Below are positions 1-7,517 of a stretch of 7,517 nucleotides of DNA, in pieces (position 1 is the first letter of the stretch; the number at the start of each line of letters is the position of its first letter). The translations under genes and the position numbers were made by a program. A model generated the notes under the pieces. That model saw only the letters and a program-made list of their open reading frames with translations, was not told where the DNA came from and did no database searches. The DNA is from a virus. Lineage: Duplodnaviria; Heunggongvirae; Uroviricota; Caudoviricetes. The stretch lies in IMG/VR virus record IMGVR_UViG_2706794686_000005; one strand, 5' to 3'.

Positions 1-87
1 CCCCGGCAGCCTTCAGGGAAAAATATCATCAGATGGCTGCTTAAAAAAAGAACAAATGGTAGTGTCCGCTATTGCCAGTACACCTCA
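1..87. repeat. Left copy of an 87-bp perfect inverted repeat; its reverse complement is 7420..7506
   Basis: Manual reverse-complement of 7420..7506 matches 1..87 base for base; match breaks at 88 vs 7419. Window begins exactly at the repeat boundary. Confidence 0.9.
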
Positions 88-286
88 TCCATCACCGAAA
101 AAAATTGGCTTTTACACCATTGGCGATAAAAGCATTTACCTGTATGACCTACGCCGCATGGATGAAATCATGGAGGCTCTTGATAATCGTTCGTCGATGG
201 ATTGGTGTGTTGCTGTTCATGATATGAATGCAGGGTTTGATGAAAAGATTTTGTTCCCCTCATCAGTTGAAAGCACTGCGGGTTAA
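56..286 (+). CDS. Hypothetical protein (76 aa from ATG 56); frame is open back to position 2, so may be 5'-partial
   Basis: ORF in track; no Shine-Dalgarno before ATG 56 (aaaaaagaacaaATG); no in-frame stop between position 2 and 56; first 10 codons lie inside the inverted repeat. No family recognised. Confidence 0.35.
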   Translation: MVVSAIASTPHPSPKKIGFYTIGDKSIYLYDLRRMDEIMEALDNRSSMDWCVAVHDMNAGFDEKILFPSSVESTAG

Positions 287-296
287 GGAGTAACAC

Positions 297-464
297 ATGA
301 CCACTATTACCAAAGAACGTATTGAATTGTTCATTAAAAACCCGCTTGAAAACGGGCTTACCCGTGGTGAACAAATGGAACTGGCACGGATTGCGCTGGC
401 ATCGCTGGAAGCAGAGCCGGTTGTGTTCTGGTTTGAAAAATATCAAGAAGGGGCTACGGCATGA
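297..464 (+). CDS. Small hypothetical phage protein, 55 aa ([12 protein letters not shown]...); not in the ORF track (below length cutoff)
   Basis: Strong RBS AAGGAG at 285..290, 6 nt before ATG 297; stop TGA overlaps next start as ATGA at 461..464; shares motif [10 protein letters not shown] with the 114-aa ORF downstream. Confidence 0.5.
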
Positions 465-805
465 CGACTTTTACCAGAGAGCAGTTAATAGCTCACGCAG
501 AGGAGACTATTGAAGCACAGAGACTGTGCATACCGGGCACAATCGACCATGACATCATCCGCACATATAAGATGGATATTGCTGTTCTGGAAATCGCACT
601 GGTATCGCTGGCAGCAGAGCCAGCCGGTAAATTGCATGAATACAAACCAGTGGGATATCAGCGTCTGGTCGATGAGTTAACCATGCTGGTAAAGCAGTTA
701 ACCTGGCAACTGAGGAAAGCGAAGCCAGACTGCAAATTACCGGATAAGGCGATGAGTTATCTGGAGCGGAACGGACTGATAAGCGTGGAGGATATTTTAC
801 GATGA
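461..805 (+). CDS. Hypothetical phage nin-region protein, 114 aa
   Basis: ORF in track; ATGA overlap with upstream ORF; purine-rich aagggg 8 nt upstream; paralogous motifs shared with the 55-aa and 80-aa ORFs. No family recognised. Confidence 0.55.
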
Positions 806-885
806 CCTGGCCTGAAGCATTAACAACGGTAGGAATTGCGATGGCGGTGGCGCTGGTGGTGTATTCGATTTGCCGCTGGGGATAA
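802..885 (+). CDS. Putative small hydrophobic peptide, 27 aa ([27 protein letters not shown])
   Basis: ATG 802 overlaps the stop of the 114-aa ORF (ATGA); single predicted membrane-spanning hydrophobic stretch; too short for statistical support. Confidence 0.25.
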
Positions 886-1096
886 AAACGGTTTGCGGGA
901 AAAGGAGAGTTAAGTAGAATTGCAGCGGGTGCTTGAGGCTATCTGTCTCAGGCATGAACACCAAAAGGCAGATAGAGAAAAGCCCCAGTTAACATTACGC
1001 GTCCGGCAAGACGCTTAACATTAATCTGAGGCTCAATCTATGAACGGCAAATCTAGGTTAGCCTCTTACGTGCCGAAAGGCAAGGAGAAGCAGGCT

Positions 1097-1252
1097 ATGA
1101 AGCAGCAAAAGGCGATGTTAATCGCCCTGATCGTCATCTGTTTAACCGTCATAGTGACGGCACTGGTAACGAGGAAAGACCTCTGCGAGGTACGAATTCG
1201 AACCGGCCAGACGGAGGTCGCTGTCTTCACAGCTTACGAACCTGAGGAGTAA
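1097..1252 (+). CDS. hokD: Hok/Gef family type I toxin, 51 aa (host-killing membrane peptide); closest to HokD/RelF by memory
   Basis: Translation MKQQKAMLIALIVICLTVIVTALVTRKDLCEVRIRTGQTEVAVFTAYEPEE matches the Hok family signature (N-terminal TM helix, conserved Cys, C-terminal TGQTEVAVFTAYE) as I recall it; SD AGGAG at 1083..1087. An in-frame upstream ATG at 1040 (SD GAGG 1028..1031) would give a 70-aa extended form. Confidence 0.85.
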   Translation: MKQQKAMLIALIVICLTVIVTALVTRKDLCEVRIRTGQTEVAVFTAYEPEE

Positions 1253-1320
1253 GAGACCAGGCGGGGGAGAAATCCCTCGCCACCTCTGATGGGGCAGGCA
1301 TCCTCAATGCACCCACACTT

Positions 1321-1347
1321 AACCCGCTTCGGCGGGTTTTTGTTTTT
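1321..1347 (+). terminator. Rho-independent terminator after hok
   Basis: Stem CCCGC (1323..1327), TTCG tetraloop, GCGGG (1332..1336), followed by TTTTTGTTTTTATTTT. Confidence 0.7.
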
Positions 1348-1360
1348 ATTTTCAACGCGT

Positions 1361-1390
1361 TTGAAGTTTTAGATGGTGCCGGAATAGAAT
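1361..1390 (+). promoter_or_regulatory. Putative sigma70 promoter for the downstream operon
   Basis: TTGAAG (1361..1366), 18-nt spacer, TAGAAT (1385..1390); sequence match only. Confidence 0.3.
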
Positions 1391-1472
1391 CAAAAATACT
1401 TAAGTAGCGCGCAGGGAGAAGAGGGATGGACCCCGAACAGGGGAGTGCTATTTATCTGGAAGGATTCTGTTG

Positions 1473-1754
1473 ATGAAAATCGAAGAATTACGTGAAATTT
1501 TTAGTGAAGATGGCCTCTATACTGTGCGCGTTGAGAATGGCGCTATTGTCAGCCACTGCCTTCCAGACTACACAATTCTGATAATTCAGCCGTCTTTGCC
1601 AGCAGGCACGGGCGGCGCTCTCACGCATTTAAATCTGATTGGTACCAGCATCCCCCATGCACTGAAGAACAGGCCGAATGGCTCATTCAGTGTTACCGCA
1701 GGCGCGGATGCGAGGTTAAAAAAGCCCTTAGCCTCGACTACCGTCACTGGATAA
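1473..1754 (+). CDS. Hypothetical protein, 93 aa (MKIEELREIFSEDGLY...)
   Basis: ORF in track (TTG 1470 / ATG 1473); SD GGAAGGA at 1459..1465. Sits where rem-like genes lie upstream of ydfU in some prophages, but family not recognised. Confidence 0.45.
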   Translation: MKIEELREIFSEDGLYTVRVENGAIVSHCLPDYTILIIQPSLPAGTGGALTHLNLIGTSIPHALKNRPNGSFSVTAGADARLKKPLASTTVTG

Positions 1755-1829
1755 TCTCCGTCAGGCTCCCTTACTCCGAACGGCCAACGCGTCCGTCCCG
1801 CACATTCCAGCAACGGATCTGGAGGTAAT

Positions 1830-2888
1830 GTGCGGGTATTACTTCGACCTGTTCTGGTACCGGAACTCGGTCTGGTTATCGTTAAGCCAGGCCGTGAATC
1901 AATGTCAGCATTCCATAACGGCAGAATACTGGTGGAGCCGGAACCAAAAAGCATGCGTAATCTGCCGTCCGGGGTCGTTCCTGCCGCTCGCCAGCCGCTG
2001 GTGGAAGACAAAACATTGCTGCCGTTTTTCAGTAACGCACGGGTGATTCGTGCTGCTGGTGGTGCTGGTGCATTGTCTGACTGGCTGTTGCGCCATATTA
2101 AATCCTGCCAGTGGCCACACGGCGATTATCATCACAGCGAAACCGTCATTCACCGTTATGGTACCGGCGCAATGGTGTTGTGCTGGCACTGCGACAACCA
2201 GCTGCGTGACCAGACATCCGAATCACTCGAGCAACTTGCTCATCAAAACCTGTCAGCATGGATGATTGACGTCATCGGTCACGCAATAAGCGGTACGCAG
2301 GAGCGTGAATTATCTCTGGCTGAATTATCCTGGTGGGCGGTCCGCAATCAGGTGGCGGACGCGCTACCGGAAGCGGTATTACGTCGTTCGCTGGGGTTGC
2401 GTGCGGAAAAAATTCGCTCTGTGTACAGTGAAAGCGACATCATACCGGGAGAGCAGACAGCCACCAGCATACTGAAGCAGCGCACAAAAAATATTGCGTT
2501 ACTGCCTCACGTCCACCAGCAACAGAACCCACCACAGGAAAAGACGGTGGTCAGCATTGCCGTTGATCCGGAGTCACCGGCTCAGTATCTCCAGCGCCAG
2601 AAATCACAACGGGAAGAGATGCCTGTATACACGCGCTGGGTAAAAACGCAGAAATGCATGACGTGTGGCAATCAGGCAGATGATCCGCATCACATCATTG
2701 GTCATGGACTGGGAGGGATGGGAACAAAGGCTGATGATTTGTTTGTTATTCCGTTATGCCGTAAATGCCGTAACGAACTACATGCCGGAGTAAAAGATTT
2801 TGAAGAGAAACACGGCAGTCAGCTGTTGTTGCTGATTCGTTTTTTAATGCACGCGAGAAATTCGGGTGTTCTGAAGTGGAAAGCATAA
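1830..2888 (+). CDS. YdfU-like DUF968 family prophage protein, 352 aa, with C-terminal Cys/His cluster
   Basis: Long ORF; GGAGG at 1821..1825 before GTG 1830 (alternative start ATG 1902); C-terminal motif CMTCGNQADDPHH...CRKCRNELH resembles the DUF968 zinc-binding region; position immediately upstream of rusA and Q is typical. Confidence 0.75.
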   Translation: MRVLLRPVLVPELGLVIVKPGRESMSAFHNGRILVEPEPKSMRNLPSGVVPAARQPLVEDKTLLPFFSNARVIRAAGGAGALSDWLLRHIKSCQWPHGDYHHSETVIHRYGTGAMVLCWHCDNQLRDQTSESLEQLAHQNLSAWMIDVIGHAISGTQERELSLAELSWWAVRNQVADALPEAVLRRSLGLRAEKIRSVYSESDIIPGEQTATSILKQRTKNIALLPHVHQQQNPPQEKTVVSIAVDPESPAQYLQRQKSQREEMPVYTRWVKTQKCMTCGNQADDPHHIIGHGLGGMGTKADDLFVIPLCRKCRNELHAGVKDFEEKHGSQLLLLIRFLMHARNSGVLKWKA

Positions 2889-3269
2889 ATGACCGAGCGC
2901 ATAGAATTTGTTTTACCTTACCCGCCGACGGTGAACACTTACTGGCGTCGTCGTGGCAGCACATATTTTGTATCAAAAGCCGGGGAGCGTTATCGCCGGG
3001 CAGTGGCGCTTATTGTTCGCCAGCAGCGGCTGAAATTAAGCCTGTCCGGAAGGTTGGCAATAAAAATTATTGCAGAACCACCGGATAAGCGCCGCCGTGA
3101 CCTGGACAATATTCTGAAAGCGCCGCTGGATGCGCTGACGCATGCGGGGTTGCTAATGGACGATGAGCAGTTTGATGAAATCAATATCGTTCGTGCTCAG
3201 CCAGTATCTGGTGGACGTCTGGGGGTGAAGATTTATCCCATAATGCTTGAAGGGCAGGTCAAAAAATGA
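2889..3269 (+). CDS. rusA: Crossover junction endodeoxyribonuclease RusA (Holliday junction resolvase), copy 1, 126 aa
   Basis: Translation contains the RusA acidic core PDKRRRDLDN...DALT...DDEQ; start abuts the ydfU-like stop; stop overlaps next ATG (ATGA). Confidence 0.9.
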   Translation: MTERIEFVLPYPPTVNTYWRRRGSTYFVSKAGERYRRAVALIVRQQRLKLSLSGRLAIKIIAEPPDKRRRDLDNILKAPLDALTHAGLLMDDEQFDEINIVRAQPVSGGRLGVKIYPIMLEGQVKK

Positions 3270-3471
3270 AACTGGAAGATTTACCGAAATACTACTCCCC
3301 AAAATCCCCCGGCCTGACTGATGCATCGGCCTCAACGTCGAAAGATGCGCTGAGTATCACTGATGTGATGGCCGCGCAGGGCATGACACAGAATCGGGCT
3401 GAGATGGGGGTTTCTGCGTTCCTTGGGAAAATGGGCATTAGTATGAATGACAGAGAGCGGGCAACAGAATT
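3266..3471 (+). CDS. Lambda-Q-family antiterminator, N-terminal 69 codons only; 3' part lost in N-run 3472..3721 and probably truncated or chimeric
   Basis: MKLEDLPKYYSPKSPGLTDASASTSKDALSITDVMAAQGM... aligns with the lambda Q N-terminus (MRLESVAKFHSPKSPMMSD...SGTDVMAAMGM). In-frame sequence after the gap (WLSGDSGGQSTDIFCLWTRKVHGCFPLP*) does not resemble a Q C-terminus, and the total would be 180 aa at most. Confidence 0.5.
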
Positions 3472-3721
3472 NNNNNNNNNNNNNNNNNNNNNNNNNNNNN
3501 NNNNNNNNNNNNNNNNNNNNNNNNNNNNNNNNNNNNNNNNNNNNNNNNNNNNNNNNNNNNNNNNNNNNNNNNNNNNNNNNNNNNNNNNNNNNNNNNNNNN
3601 NNNNNNNNNNNNNNNNNNNNNNNNNNNNNNNNNNNNNNNNNNNNNNNNNNNNNNNNNNNNNNNNNNNNNNNNNNNNNNNNNNNNNNNNNNNNNNNNNNNN
3701 NNNNNNNNNNNNNNNNNNNNN
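3472..3721. other. N-run, 250 nt of unresolved or masked sequence
   Basis: Run of n in the sequence. Confidence 1.
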
Positions 3722-3887
3722 TGGTTGTCTGGAGATTCAGGGGGCCAGTCTACGGACATTTTCTGCCTGTGGACCAGGAAAGTGCACGGGTGCTTTCCAC
3801 TCCCATGAAGCCCGGCAATCCGCGCAGATACAGTAATAAACGAACTGACAGCAGTAAGATGGAGCGTTTCTTTTGAACAACCAGACA

Positions 3888-4130
3888 ATGACTTTTACCC
3901 CTGAACAATTGCGTAAACACGCGCAGGAAATGCTGCGTCATGCTGAACAACTCGAAAAAACGGGCATAACAAAAGACGCTATCCGTAAAGATATGGTACC
4001 CGCGCTTCGGGAACTGATGCAGGCGAAGCATCGCGCACAGAAAGCAGTAGATGAGCTGGTGGACTGTGTGGCAGAGCTGGAAACCAGAGTCGGAAAGTTT
4101 GAAAAACTGGTGCAGGAGGTGCTGCGCTGA
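3888..4130 (+). CDS. Hypothetical protein, 80 aa from ATG 3888 (85 aa from TTG 3873); predicted helical/coiled-coil
   Basis: ORF in track; stop TGA 4128..4130 overlaps the rusA copy 2 start (TGATG); N-terminus MTFTPEQLRKHAQE resembles the 114-aa [18 protein letters not shown]; weak RBS. Confidence 0.45.
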   Translation: MTFTPEQLRKHAQEMLRHAEQLEKTGITKDAIRKDMVPALRELMQAKHRAQKAVDELVDCVAELETRVGKFEKLVQEVLR

Positions 4131-4504
4131 TGCGCCATGAGTTTATTTTACCTTATCCGCCGACGGTGAATACTTACTGGCGACGTCGTGACAACACATA
4201 TTTTGTATCAAAAGCCGGTGAGCGTTATCGCCGGGATGTGGCGCTTATTGTCCGTCAGCAGCGACTGAAATTAAGCCTGTCCGGAAGACTGGCGATAAAG
4301 ATTATTGCAGAGCCACCGGATAAGCGCCGTCGTGACCTGGACAATATCCTGAAAGCACCACTGGATGCACTGACACATGCGGGAGTGTTAATGGACGATG
4401 AGCAGTTTGATGAAATCAATATCGTTCGTGGTCAGCCAGTATCTGGTGGACGTCTGGGGGTGAAGATTTACCCCATAATGCATGAAGAGCAGGTCAAAAA
4501 ATGA
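4130..4504 (+). CDS. rusA: Crossover junction endodeoxyribonuclease RusA, copy 2, 124 aa; divergent paralogue of copy 1
   Basis: Same RusA core motifs; SD AGGAGG at 4113..4118; differs from copy 1 at the N-terminus and at 7 internal residues, with many synonymous nucleotide differences. Confidence 0.9.
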   Translation: MRHEFILPYPPTVNTYWRRRDNTYFVSKAGERYRRDVALIVRQQRLKLSLSGRLAIKIIAEPPDKRRRDLDNILKAPLDALTHAGVLMDDEQFDEINIVRGQPVSGGRLGVKIYPIMHEEQVKK

Positions 4505-5175
4505 AACTGGAAGATTTACNNNNNNNNNNNNNNNNNNNNNNNNNNNNNNNNNNNNNNNNNNNNNNNNNNNNNNNNNNNNNNNNNNNNNNNNNNNNNNNNN
4601 NNNNNNNNNNNNNNNNNNNNNNNNNNNNNNNNNNNNNNNNNNNNNNNNNNNNNNNNNNNNNNNNNNNNNGCCCTTGTTGCTATGGGGAAAAATTTATTGA
4701 AAGCGTAGTTTTTACAAACAAGGTCCAGTATCCGGATGGTAAGCCGCCGGTATGGGCAAAGTGTACGAAAGGTGTGTATCCGTCTTACTGGGAAGAATGG
4801 AAAAAAGTCAGGGAGGTGGTAAAAGTTGCCTGTCCGGAGTGTGGCGGAAAGGGTGAGGTTTCCACCGCCTGTAAGGATTGCCGTGGGCGTGGTGTCGCCA
4901 TTCATCGTGAAGAGTCGGTAAAACGTGGTATGCCTGTTATCAGAGACTGCCAGCGTTGTGGTGGTCGTGGCTATGAAAGACTACCATCAACGGAGGCATT
5001 TAATGCTATATGCGAGGTGACAAACCAGATAACACGCGCGTCATGGGAAAAAACAGTTAAGAAATTCTATGATGCGCTGGTGACTCGGTTTGATATTGAA
5101 GAAGCATGGGCTGAGCGGCAGTTAAAAAAGGTAACTAGGTTGATTTTTCCGGAATCTGTGGTAAATTCGTCATAA
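4501..5175 (+). CDS. Q: Lambda-Q-family late-gene antiterminator, 224 aa; codons 7..56 masked by N-run
   Basis: ATGA coupling to rusA; first 19 nt identical to the Q fragment at 3266; zinc-finger-like CPECGGKG...CKDCRGRG...CQRCGGRGY and C-terminal TVKKFYDALV parallel lambda Q (CRDCHGTG...CGRCKGVGY...TVKPLYDALV). Confidence 0.8.
   Translation: MKLEDLXXXXXXXXXXXXXXXXXXXXXXXXXXXXXXXXXXXXXXXXXXXXXXXXXXXPCCYGEKFIESVVFTNKVQYPDGKPPVWAKCTKGVYPSYWEEWKKVREVVKVACPECGGKGEVSTACKDCRGRGVAIHREESVKRGMPVIRDCQRCGGRGYERLPSTEAFNAICEVTNQITRASWEKTVKKFYDALVTRFDIEEAWAERQLKKVTRLIFPESVVNSS
4520..4669. other. N-run, 150 nt, inside Q
   Basis: Run of n in the sequence. Confidence 1.
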
Positions 5176-5178
5176 CTA

Positions 5179-5215
5179 TGGGCGTTTTATGCCTGACGTT
5201 AGAAGAGTTTCTACA
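5179..5215. repeat. 37-bp direct repeat, copy 1 (tgggcgttttatgcctgacgttagaagagtttctaca), ending at N-run
   Basis: Identical to 5483..5519; true extent unknown because the inner side of each copy abuts N. Confidence 0.85.
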
Positions 5216-5482
5216 NNNNNNNNNNNNNNNNNNNNNNNNNNNNNNNNNNNNNNNNNNNNNNNNNNNNNNNNNNNNNNNNNNNNNNNNNNNNNNNNNNNNN
5301 NNNNNNNNNNNNNNNNNNNNNNNNNNNNNNNNNNNNNNNNNNNNNNNNNNNNNNNNNNNNNNNNNNNNNNNNNNNNNNNNNNNNNNNNNNNNNNNNNNNN
5401 NNNNNNNNNNNNNNNNNNNNNNNNNNNNNNNNNNNNNNNNNNNNNNNNNNNNNNNNNNNNNNNNNNNNNNNNNNNNNNNNNN
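5216..5482. other. N-run, 267 nt, in the expected pR'/qut position downstream of Q
   Basis: Run of n in the sequence. Confidence 1.
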
Positions 5483-5519
5483 TGGGCGTTTTATGCCTGA
5501 CGTTAGAAGAGTTTCTACA
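5483..5519. repeat. 37-bp direct repeat, copy 2
   Basis: Identical to 5179..5215. Confidence 0.85.
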
Positions 5520-5520
5520 A

Positions 5521-5542
5521 CCCGCCGCCGAGCGGGTTTTTT
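5521..5542 (+). terminator. Rho-independent terminator, tR'-like, downstream of Q
   Basis: Stem CCCGC (5521..5525), loop CGCCGA, GCGGG (5532..5536), then TTTTTT; the CGGG-TTTTTTAT ending resembles the lambda tR' 3' end as I recall it. Confidence 0.65.
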
Positions 5543-5662
5543 ATGACTGAAATCGCGTCAGTACAGTAAACGCGCTGGTGGCGGTGAATACCTGTCTTTC
5601 AGCTTGCTGGCTTTTTCGACAAGAGTTATTGGTGTGTCACGTTAACCGGAAAAGGAAAAGAC

Positions 5663-6370
5663 ATGCTAAAACAGCAGGATATGACAGAAACCGCCAGAGT
5701 GGTGTTTAATGAATTAAGCGTTNNNNNNNNNNNNNNNNNNNNNNNNNNNNNNNNNNNNNNNNNNNNNNNNNNNNNNNNNNNNNNNNNNNNNNNNNNNNNN
5801 NNNNNNNNNNNNNNNNNNNNNNNNNNNNNNNNNNNNNNNNNNNNNNNNNNNNNNNNNNNNNNNNNNNNNNNNNNNNNNNNNNNNNNNNNNNNNNNNNNNN
5901 NNNNNNNNNNNNNNNNNNNNNNNNNNNNNNNNNNNNNNNNNNNNNNNNNNNNNNNNNNNNNNNNNNNNNNNNNNNNNNNNNNNNNNNNNNNNNNNNNNNN
6001 NNNNNNNNNNNNNNNNNNGATTGAGTGTTTGTTATACGGTCTAATGGTTTTTTCAGCATTAAATATTTATCATTCATATGGTGTGGGTAGAGTGAATATT
6101 GATGAGGCGTCGGGGTGTTTCATCCTTAGGCAGCGTATTGATATAGTCAATGCAGCACGAGCAAAGGCCTTCAGCCGTTTGACAGTTTTGTTCTGTACTC
6201 CTGATCGTCTTTCGGGAAGAGACGTTATTATTCTGAATAGTGATGCTATACAGAGGGTTTGCGATGAGTTCATGGTTGCTAATTCAGAATTATTTGCTCT
6301 TGTTCAGGAGTACAACAGAATAGCCAGGACCTGTGGTATGGATGAACTTCGGATTACTCATCTGGGGTAG
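5663..6370 (+). CDS. Hypothetical cargo protein; 235 aa only if N-run 5723..6018 preserves frame and hides no stop; otherwise two genes
   Basis: Good RBS (aaaaggaaaag) before ATG 5663; 117 open codons after the gap; AT-rich codon usage with rare AGG/AGA/ATA/CTA; competing minus-strand ORF 5706..6077 lacks an RBS. No family recognised. Confidence 0.4.
   Translation: MLKQQDMTETARVVFNELSVXXXXXXXXXXXXXXXXXXXXXXXXXXXXXXXXXXXXXXXXXXXXXXXXXXXXXXXXXXXXXXXXXXXXXXXXXXXXXXXXXXXXXXXXXXXXXXXXXXXIECLLYGLMVFSALNIYHSYGVGRVNIDEASGCFILRQRIDIVNAARAKAFSRLTVLFCTPDRLSGRDVIILNSDAIQRVCDEFMVANSELFALVQEYNRIARTCGMDELRITHLG
5723..6018. other. N-run, 296 nt, inside the cargo ORF
   Basis: Run of n in the sequence. Confidence 1.
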
Positions 6371-6696
6371 ATACATATCTGGATTATCACCTGTTACGGT
6401 AAAAAGTGATTGCTTACTGTTTTTGTGAATGGCATTGCAGCAGCCGGATAATGTCAGTGCTGGCTGACGGTGTGCTGGTGGCGGGTGTGGTGGTTGTTGC
6501 TTTCCCGTTGCTGAAAAAGAAAACGCCAGACTGTTAGCCGGGTATCAGTTAGCGGGAGAAATTTTTAAATACTTCACAATTCAGGCGGTTGACTGTTGTC
6601 TGGTTTGCGGGGAGTTTGTTAAAAGAAACTGGCATGGTGAATCCCCCTGTGCGGAGGGGCTGTTTATATTGATTTTGTCAGATGTGAGTAAACTCC

Positions 6697-7032
6697 TTAT
6701 GGACTTTGTTGTTTTAGTCCATAAGGACATATTTGCAGAGTGCAACGGTTATTAAAGCATTCATTCAATACGTTATCTGTATTTGTAGGGCATTCCTGGC
6801 TATTTTTGATTGAATTCCAGAATGTTTTATTGAATGGTACTACGTTGTAAATGGTTACAGGTAGCACTTTGTTATTGAGCATGATGCCTGTGTGAGTCAG
6901 TGTAAATATACTTTCAGGAGGTAAGAAAGCATCCGATTGATACCAGATTATTAATTTTATTTTACTCCATATGACTGAAAAAGATATTCCGCATGATGGC
7001 TGGATAACTGTATCAATCACAATCCACTTCAT
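6697..7032 (-). CDS. Hypothetical protein, 111 aa, Cys/Trp-containing, in AT-rich DNA
   Basis: Minus-strand ORF with no overlapping plus-strand gene; RBS AAGGA about 6 nt before the ATG (plus-strand 7030..7032 is cat); candidate promoter TTTACA-N17-TACTTT upstream on the minus strand. No family recognised. Confidence 0.45.
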
Positions 7033-7292
7033 TTAGTTTCCTTGTTTATGCCTTGCTGGTGATGTTCTGAAAAGTATAAATGATATTTTTGAATGTAAAC
7101 CATAGAGCAGAATTATTTTTCTGATGTTGTTTATTGTTTATTTAAATGCAGGGTGGTTTATATCTCGTCTTGTAGTTTATCCATGCATATCTGCTTGATA
7201 ATCAGGTTTTTATTTAAGGTATGGTTTTGTGTTTTTTCTGTATTACATGTCAGGTATTTTAAAGAATTATTTTTCAGATGGTGGAAAGAACC

Positions 7293-7466
7293 ATGGCATT
7301 TAAACACTATGATGTTGTCAGGGCGGCGCCGCCGTCAGATCTTGCGGAAAAGCTGACACATAAACTGAAAGAGGGCTGGCAGCCGTTTGGTAGTCCGGTG
7401 GCCATAACCCCTTATACCCTGAGGTGTACTGGCAATAGCGGACACTACCATTTGTTCTTTTTTTAA
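7293..7466 (+). CDS. Small hypothetical phage protein, 57 aa (MAFKHYDVVRAAPPSDLAEKLTHKLKEGWQPFGSPVAI...); last 15 codons encoded by the right inverted-repeat copy
   Basis: ORF in track from ATG 7278; ATG 7293 preferred because of ggaaag upstream; the GWQP.G motif is reminiscent of small phage proteins in the DUF1737 class, but that is uncertain memory. Confidence 0.4.
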   Translation: MAFKHYDVVRAAPPSDLAEKLTHKLKEGWQPFGSPVAITPYTLRCTGNSGHYHLFFF

Positions 7467-7506
7467 GCAGCCATCTGATGATATTTTTCCCTGAAGGCTG
7501 CCGGGG
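7420..7506. repeat. Right copy of the 87-bp perfect inverted repeat (reverse complement of 1..87)
   Basis: Verified by manual reverse-complement in 10-nt blocks; followed by 11 nt (agatattcccc) to the window end. Confidence 0.9.
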
Positions 7507-7517
7507 AGATATTCCCC

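Follow-up and report, generated by a model that had tools for sequence, protein, structure and literature searches.

A putative iraL anti-adaptor gene in the late-region moron slot of a decayed Shigella sonnei lambdoid prophage

The DNA analysed here is the Caudoviricetes virus record IMGVR_UViG_2706794686_000005, a stretch of 7517 nt (hereafter the window), and the interval of interest is its part at 5550–7292, downstream of the phage gene Q. In the window are late-regulatory genes of the lambdoid prophage kind (hok/sok, a DUF968 gene and two rusA-Q pairs) and four runs of N, of 250 nt (3472–3721), 150 nt (4520–4669), 267 nt (5216–5482) and 296 nt (5723–6018). The main gene of the interval is a minus-strand open reading frame (ORF) of 111 aa that is identified by homology as iraL, and it is accompanied on the plus strand by the start of a 65-aa gene, a 108-aa ORF, a DUF3927 gene, a remnant of the small RNA (sRNA) STnc100 and an interrupted DUF1737 gene (Table 1). 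A first-pass annotation of this DNA had seen a sharp loss of guanine and cytosine (GC) after Q and a tR'-like terminator. With Ns excluded, GC content falls from 49.7% at 88–5215 to 39.0% at 5550–7292, and the drop is real, but it is mostly confined to iraL (34.5% at 6697–7032) and its upstream spacer (29.6% at 7033–7292). On the plus strand the reduction is slight, to 41–46% (44.5% at 5550–5722, 41.5% at 6019–6370 and 45.7% at 6371–6696). The terminator itself was recovered by a terminator scan as a hairpin and T run at 5519–5538, 3' of the Q gene, which ends at 5175.

By its similarity to characterised proteins, the 111-aa minus-strand ORF is identified as IraL, which has already been described and is the main cargo of the interval. 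Specifically, it agrees with IraL of Escherichia coli CFT073 at 110 of 111 residues, the single substitution being a serine at position 74 in the window where CFT073 has a leucine. The NCBIfam model NF007393, "anti-adapter protein IraM", covers residues 1–110 of the 111 with 162 bits, above its cutoff of 121, which places the protein in that family, and NCBI annotates the same DNA in E. coli under the same name. Residues 1–78 align without gaps to residues 4–81 of PDB chain 8twd_A (IraM; E = 6.3e-31), a stretch that covers the IraM core contacting RssB. Identity to K-12 IraM is 65 of 107 aligned residues, that is, 61% of the alignment or 58.6% of the 111 residues. CFT073 IraL was described as a paralogue of IraM, 58.9% identical to it, that binds RssB (Hryckowian et al. 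2014, mBio, PMC4045071). We took the criteria for the IraL subtype from the same work, namely that identity should be at least 95% with CFT073 iraL and about 59% with K-12 IraM, and the window protein falls within both. The earlier suggestions that the visible proteins belong to no recognisable family, and that the main cargo is undescribed, therefore do not hold: the ORF matches NF007393 and the IraM structure, and it is 99% identical to a published protein. The gene is also widespread. It has been reported as common in uropathogenic E. coli (UPEC) and Shigella (PMC4045071), among 5426 complete E. coli genomes 1446 have iraL with its spacer at 90% identity or more, with the gene annotated by the NCBI pipeline as the IraM anti-adapter, and 4016 blocks of the assembly collection list the exact window protein.

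The promoter of iraL has been mapped. The published iraL sequence from rapid amplification of 5' cDNA ends (5' RACE), ACATCACCAGCAAGGCATAAACAAGGAAAC (PMC4045071), corresponds to the window read as its reverse complement from 7065 downward. Since the published transcription start site (TSS) maps to that position, the AT-rich "divergent promoter region" that the first-pass annotation placed at 7033–7292, between iraL on the minus strand and the DUF1737 gene on the plus strand, contains the mapped iraL promoter. This promoter is of the sigma-70 type and is iraL's own. The proposal that the minus-strand ORF has its own ribosome-binding site (RBS) and promoter was likewise correct, with a GGA-rich RBS and the mapped promoter and TSS lying just upstream. 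From the first iraL codons to the DUF1737 start, 277 of 281 positions are the same as in CFT073 and four differ; the upstream region is identical to that of S. sonnei L005, and the spacer is near-invariant across CFT073, E. coli 042 and S. sonnei. The window thus holds the conserved iraL promoter and 5' untranslated region (UTR) with its mapped TSS, as expected of the subtype. No minus-strand terminator was found in the one terminator scan, and no further scan 3' of iraL was made.

Table 1. Features of the window and the reference segments to which it maps. A dot marks features without strand; L030 and L005 are S. sonnei reference loci.
Feature	Position	Strand	Evidence or remark
Putative iraL, RssB anti-adaptor of the IraM/IraL/RssC family, 111 aa	6697..7032	-	Identity to CFT073 IraL; NF007393; PDB 8twd
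iraL promoter and 5' UTR	7033..7099	-	TSS 7065; TATACT 7078-7073; TTTACA 7099-7094; RBS AAGGAAA before ATG at 7032
AT-rich spacer, iraL (-) to DUF1737 gene (+)	7100..7292	.	About 30% GC; conserved with iraL
tR'-like intrinsic terminator, 3' of Q	5519..5544	+	7-bp GC-rich stem and T run; terminator scan, hairpin and T run at 5519-5538
First 20 codons of 65-aa gene (phrog_331), prophage A (ompW side)	5663..5722	+	100% identity; PHROG profile
296-N run, behaving as a scaffold gap	5723..6018	.	Left flank L030, right flank L005; two loci joined
phrog_2873 ORF, complete, 108 aa	6044..6370	+	phrog_2873 1-108/108, E=2.8e-70
DUF3927/TciB-like small hydrophobic protein, 43 aa	6406..6537	+	PF13064, 95.6 bits, above cutoff of 25; phrog_1470
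STnc100 sRNA remnant, central 121 nt gone	6603..6671	+	RF02076, 37.8 bits, below gathering threshold of 47
DUF1737 gene, 5' part, interrupted by IS600; first gene of the lysis-side module	7293..7419	+	PF08410, 57.6 bits
IS600 end	7420..7517	-	87-nt inverted copy forms window 1-87; annotated "IS3-like element IS600 family transposase"
Segment of prophage A, next to ompW	1-3471		L030 7113-10583, 99.97%
Segment of prophage B	3722-4519		L005 505-1302, 100%
Segment of prophage B	4670-5215		L005 1633-2178, 100%
Segment of prophage A	5483-5722		L030 11244-11483, 100%
Segment of prophage B	6019-6660		L005 2606-3247, 100%
Segment of prophage B	6644-7517		L005 3352-4225, 99.8%

From the 99% identity to the CFT073 protein, we infer that the window IraL binds RssB and stabilises RpoS against ClpXP. 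In the proposed mechanism, transcription of iraL would run leftward from a sigma-70 promoter that belongs to the gene, in antisense to the late operon of the phage. IraL would then bind the adaptor RssB, a protein of the response-regulator type, and RssB in this bound form could not pass RpoS to the ClpXP protease, with the expected outcome that RpoS stays high even during exponential growth. [quoted passage not shown]

K-12 IraM (YcgW, PDB 8TWD) belongs to the same family, and both proteins are prophage-associated, iraM adjoining the e14 prophage. The two differ in genomic context and regulation, with iraM induced by Mg2+ starvation and IraL acting in unstressed log phase; IraL also contacts RssB differently from IraM in two-hybrid tests (PMC4045071, PMC10844676), and it has four C-terminal residues more. 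IraM folds as a PmrD-like beta-barrel; it spans the two domains of RssB, reshapes the linker and obstructs the face to which sigma-S binds. The connector protein PmrD and IraM share this fold and each binds the receiver domain of a response regulator (PMC10844676), but the target of PmrD is PmrA whereas that of IraM is RssB, and the outcome for IraM is a block of proteolytic delivery. A precomputed Pfam label for the window IraL reads PF11183 (PmrD), and a search of the protein with hmmscan against current Pfam-A gave no match to PF11183 at E ≤ 0.1. The link between IraL and PmrD would by analogy be a structural one, through the PmrD-like fold of IraM.

The position of iraL is that of a late-region moron. 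In the intact relatives (the CFT073 prophage at potB, E. coli 042 and ST131) the order is Q, tR', tRNAs, the 108-aa gene, DUF3927, STnc100, iraL on the minus strand, DUF1737 and holin. The same cassette between Q and DUF1737/holin in these genomes bears out the idea of a moron slot with low-GC accessory cargo, and iraL itself combines a place between Q/pR'/tR' and the lysis genes with a GC content of 34.5% against 49.7% and its own TSS. CFT073 iraL matches in length, promoter, TSS and UTR and in its neighbours, DUF3927 upstream, DUF1737 downstream and Q/tR'/tRNAs further upstream, but it lies in a full-length lambdoid prophage whereas the window holds a remnant truncated by IS600. The stx genes of Stx phages and bor of lambda occupy the same slot, 3' of Q/pR'/tR' and 5' of the lysis genes, with GC below the phage backbone, and in Stx phages tRNA-Ile and tRNA-Arg genes lie alongside as at the true locus. 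Unlike stx and bor, iraL runs antisense to the late operon from a mapped promoter of its own, and its product regulates host physiology and is not a toxin. The first-pass annotation had assumed expression of the cargo through read-through by Q-modified polymerase. Lying antisense to the late transcript and carrying a sigma-70 promoter of its own, iraL is not expressed in this way; its expression would come from the repressed prophage. The other elements found here, phrog_331, phrog_2873, DUF3927 and STnc100, match their families end to end, apart from the internal deletion of STnc100 in the window.

At the true locus the order would be Q, pR'/tR', tRNA-Ile(CAU), tRNA-Arg(UCU), the orphan phrog_2873 gene of 108 aa, a DUF3927 membrane peptide of 43 aa, STnc100, iraL on the minus strand and DUF1737 interrupted by IS600. 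A tRNA scan found no tRNAs in the visible window. In the S. sonnei reference locus L005 they lie directly 3' of tR', as in Stx phages, at 2241–2316 (CAU; annotated tRNA-Ile, called Met by ARAGORN) and 2417–2493 (UCU, Arg). In another E. coli prophage (L023 1810–3658) the same slot holds a diverged phrog_2873 homologue, preceded by a TolA-like gene of 142 aa and a regulator of the AraC type (HTH_18). The content of the slot differs there, and its cargo is therefore interchangeable.

The plus-strand ORF at 5663–6370, 235 aa long, which the first-pass annotation had taken for a gene, is judged from these comparisons to be an artefact, a read-through of the N run that joins two genes. It is open only when the 296 Ns are translated as X. 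Its 5' part is 100% identical to UTI89 (L003 7118–7177) and to the S. sonnei locus L030 (11424–11483), and the longer stretch 5546–5722 is 100% identical to UTI89 and many extraintestinal pathogenic E. coli (ExPEC) genomes. In every unmasked copy the 65-aa gene ends at a stop, the S. sonnei copy running from MLKQQ to RRLPQ, and in the UTI89/ExPEC genomes a DNA methyltransferase gene and then tRNAs follow 3' of it; in prophage A, too, the next gene is that of a DNA methyltransferase. On the 3' side, the visible part amounts to a self-contained ORF of 108 aa starting at ATG 6044. This part differs little from the sequence in E. coli 042 and in phage mEp460, where tRNA-Ile, tRNA-Arg and in-frame stops lie upstream, and two in-frame stops precede it in every unmasked copy; in S. 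sonnei L005 the frame reads CQK, stop, KFC, stop, VLIECLLYGLMVFS. The PHROG profiles likewise differ between the two parts, phrog_331 for the 5' part (E = 2.8e-37 for the 65-aa protein) and phrog_2873 for the 3' part, and each part is 100% identical to a different S. sonnei prophage locus. Real genomes have the two pieces at separate loci or with 2 kb or more between them, and stops intervene. The frame at 5663–6370 is thus neither open in real sequence nor of one family along its length. A winged-helix assignment for the 65-aa protein (TrmB, MarR_2, HTH_24) was considered and not adopted, as every match lay below the Pfam cutoff.

The 108-aa ORF, by contrast with the frame that contains it here, behaves as a real gene under purifying selection. 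Measured against a 57%-identical homologue from the Q-to-DUF1737 interval of another prophage, its ratio of non-synonymous to synonymous substitution rates (dN/dS) is 0.27, compared with 0.8–1.2 in non-coding frames, except for the antisense frame that shares wobble positions. The conserved core begins at about 6095 (NIDE...), and GTG at 6092 or a TTG hidden at 6017 are alternative starts. We found 23 close relatives, and 20 small, unnamed ones in an exhaustive profile search of 1.84 billion representatives, all from Escherichia/Shigella where the source is named. An AlphaFold2 (AF2) model with a predicted local distance difference test (pLDDT) score of 75.7 predicts a strand, two long helices and a strand. 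Foldseek of this model against PDB gave no significant match, only generic helical hairpins (best E = 0.11), and searches against Pfam and NCBIfam gave nothing above noise. The neighbouring DUF3927 gene is annotated at this locus in E. coli 042, ST131 and CFT073, and its PHROG carries the label [quoted passage not shown]. Of the whole interval, only the 43-aa DUF3927 peptide and the 108-aa product of the phrog_2873 ORF are truly uncharacterised, and both belong to families already catalogued; with iraL published, the cargo is already known.

These two proteins, possibly with STnc100, could form an undescribed defence, anti-defence or superinfection-exclusion cassette driven by the late promoter. 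They lie in the sense orientation in a classic moron slot, 3' of pR'/tR'; the 108-aa ORF is under selection and its product lacks a known family or fold, and DUF3927 falls in the TciB-like PHROG. The earlier suggestion of defence cargo found no support in PADLOC-DB 2.0, in which no model matched IraL, DUF3927 or the 108-aa protein, and the 65-aa protein gave a single match at noise level (E = 0.006, 13 bits). The phrog_2873 family is also tiny and restricted to Escherichia/Shigella prophages. The 108-aa ORF was left uncalled by the Prokaryotic Genome Annotation Pipeline (PGAP) in 042, CFT073 and ST131, its start codon is ambiguous and without a clear RBS, and the modules occur separately, mEp460 having the 108-aa and DUF3927 genes and no iraL. 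We therefore consider such a cassette unlikely. A somewhat broader proposition, to which we give a small but appreciable chance, is that at least one of two things is true: that phrog_2873, alone or with DUF3927, is a new late-expressed moron, for example for exclusion or anti-defence, or that prophage induction silences iraL. The latter could come about by transcriptional interference, iraL and the Q-antiterminated late transcript being convergent, and if it does, lytic development would thereby be coupled to destabilisation of RpoS.

The window as a whole was mapped by BLAST against two S. sonnei loci, L030 (prophage A, next to ompW) and L005 (prophage B, next to an IpaH-type effector gene), and its segments alternate between them (Table 1). 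Switches between A and B are located at N runs and nowhere else. Given the interleaving and switches at N runs only, the window looks like a scaffold and not like one locus. The tR' region is identical in both references (L005 2142–2203 and L030 11244–11305). The 150-N run corresponds to 330 nt in L005, so length is not preserved, and a 37-nt duplicate flanks the N run at 5216–5482 (5179–5215 equals 5483–5519). In complete S. sonnei genomes, IS21, other insertion sequence (IS) copies and an IpaH-type gene lie 5' of prophage B, and not the left half of the window. The two rusA-Q pairs of the window (2889–3471 and 4130–5175) are about 90% identical over 300 nt; one belongs to prophage A and the other to prophage B. 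A tandem rusA-Q duplication within one prophage was rejected, as the mapping puts the copies in two prophages, and so was a single composite element bracketed by inverted IS600 ends, the left IS600 belonging to prophage A and the right to prophage B. On this comparison, the N runs are most likely gaps left in scaffolding, where short-read contigs from two paralogous prophage remnants were joined, and any feature extending across an N run of this window is unreliable.

Alternatively, the N runs might be length-preserving masks over a contiguous hybrid prophage that arose by gene conversion. The rusA-Q regions of the two prophages are 91–97% identical and could recombine, and IS-mediated rearrangements are abundant in S. 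sonnei genomes. Such a hybrid would nevertheless require four switches, each exactly under an N run, the in-frame loss of 180 nt from Q, hidden precisely by one N run whose flanks are 100% identical, and the 37-nt duplicate around another. All 16 of the 16 S. sonnei iraL loci fetched keep the L005 arrangement and none shows the hybrid of the window. A contiguous hybrid prophage is accordingly quite improbable.

Within the interval, STnc100 is damaged internally. In S. sonnei L005 it is intact (3190–3379, 132.4 bits) between DUF3927 and iraL, and the 121 nt missing from the window are retained in 19 of 19 reference loci. The end-points of the deletion sit in two near-identical hairpin halves (GGAGGGGC), and the hybrid hairpin at 6644–6659 with its T-rich tail looks terminator-like. 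The deletion junction gave no match in metagenome_contigs or viral_contigs. STnc100 has been discussed as a prophage marker related to PasD (2026 preprint).

This damage also bears on whether iraL is a decaying, non-functional passenger of a dead prophage remnant. The prophage is heavily degraded by IS600, IS21 and an IS end, its lysis and structural genes are gone, and the STnc100 next to iraL is internally deleted. The iraL ORF is nevertheless intact, its promoter and UTR are identical to those of other S. sonnei copies and nearly so to CFT073, the exact protein recurs throughout the assembly collection as noted above, and the S. sonnei gene is active by the published deletion phenotype (PMC4045071). 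A non-functional iraL is thus very unlikely. The least credible alternative, one to which we attach next to no weight, is that the 235-aa ORF is a real fusion gene left by deletion of the 65-aa gene end, the methyltransferase and the tRNAs in the source strain: both modules do occur in the same orientation within one prophage in ST131-type genomes, and with the 296 Ns as written the 5663 start and the 6370 stop share a frame, but a frame across a gap estimate is meaningless where 150 Ns stand for 330 nt elsewhere in the window, the two in-frame stops lie just upstream of 6019 in all references, the flanks belong to two different S. sonnei loci, and the junction is absent from 5426 E. coli genomes, the GTDB representatives and the metagenomes. 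Specifically, a gapped-pattern scan for the 5722/6019 junction found it absent from genome_contigs and metagenome_contigs, and a BLAST search of 5483–6420 against the E. coli genomes returned no record that joins both flanks; the recovery of the masked 296 nt, as the first-pass annotation had proposed, was thus not achieved from the genomes and metagenomes searched.

At the right-hand end, the window ends are inverted copies of the IS600 end (inverted repeat I1), and IS3-family transposase genes adjoin in the reference loci L005–L020. The IS600-truncated DUF1737 protein was seen only under Shigella names, mainly S. sonnei, and exact-protein look-ups found the same right-hand arrangement in many complete genomes; the DUF1737/IS600 junction itself had no match in genome_contigs. 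At the left edge of prophage B, the 31 nt TGGTTGTCTGGAGATTCAGGGGGCCAGTCTA at window 3722–3752 (L005 322–535) resemble what we take to be the terminal inverted repeat of IS2. If they are that repeat, an IS was inserted into another IS at this edge. An IS21-family element (IstA/IstB) lies immediately upstream of the equivalent of 3722–3752 in complete S. sonnei genomes. Further left, window 927–1252 holds a hok/sok type I toxin-antitoxin; here the leader of a HokD-like ORF (1040–1252) overlaps with the sok RNA (Rfam RF01794, 112 bits).

Taken together, the interval is with high probability the moron slot of a decayed S. sonnei lambdoid prophage with iraL as its main gene, the 235-aa ORF being an artefact and the window being interleaved from two prophage remnants. 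Several points weigh against this explanation. The content of the N runs is one that we infer from other S. sonnei and E. coli genomes. ST131-type prophages hold the 65-aa and 108-aa genes in one prophage, about 2.2 kb apart, and a real deletion could in principle unite the two; even with an ST131-like prophage in the source strain, as the sequence stands in those genomes, the two pieces are separate genes. The unique STnc100 deletion means that the source strain differs somewhat from the references, and it could differ elsewhere. Finally, the serine at position 74 of IraL, in place of the CFT073 leucine, may alter activity.

The finding is mostly a correction, in that the supposed undescribed cargo is the published regulator iraL and its companion ORF an artefact. 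The lesson is that ORFs across N runs should not be scored, and that N runs may be gaps of the wrong length joining paralogous prophages. The locus itself, already in the literature, would be a prophage moron that rewires host stress physiology through RpoS stabilisation and that has stayed intact in S. sonnei amid the decay of the prophage around it.

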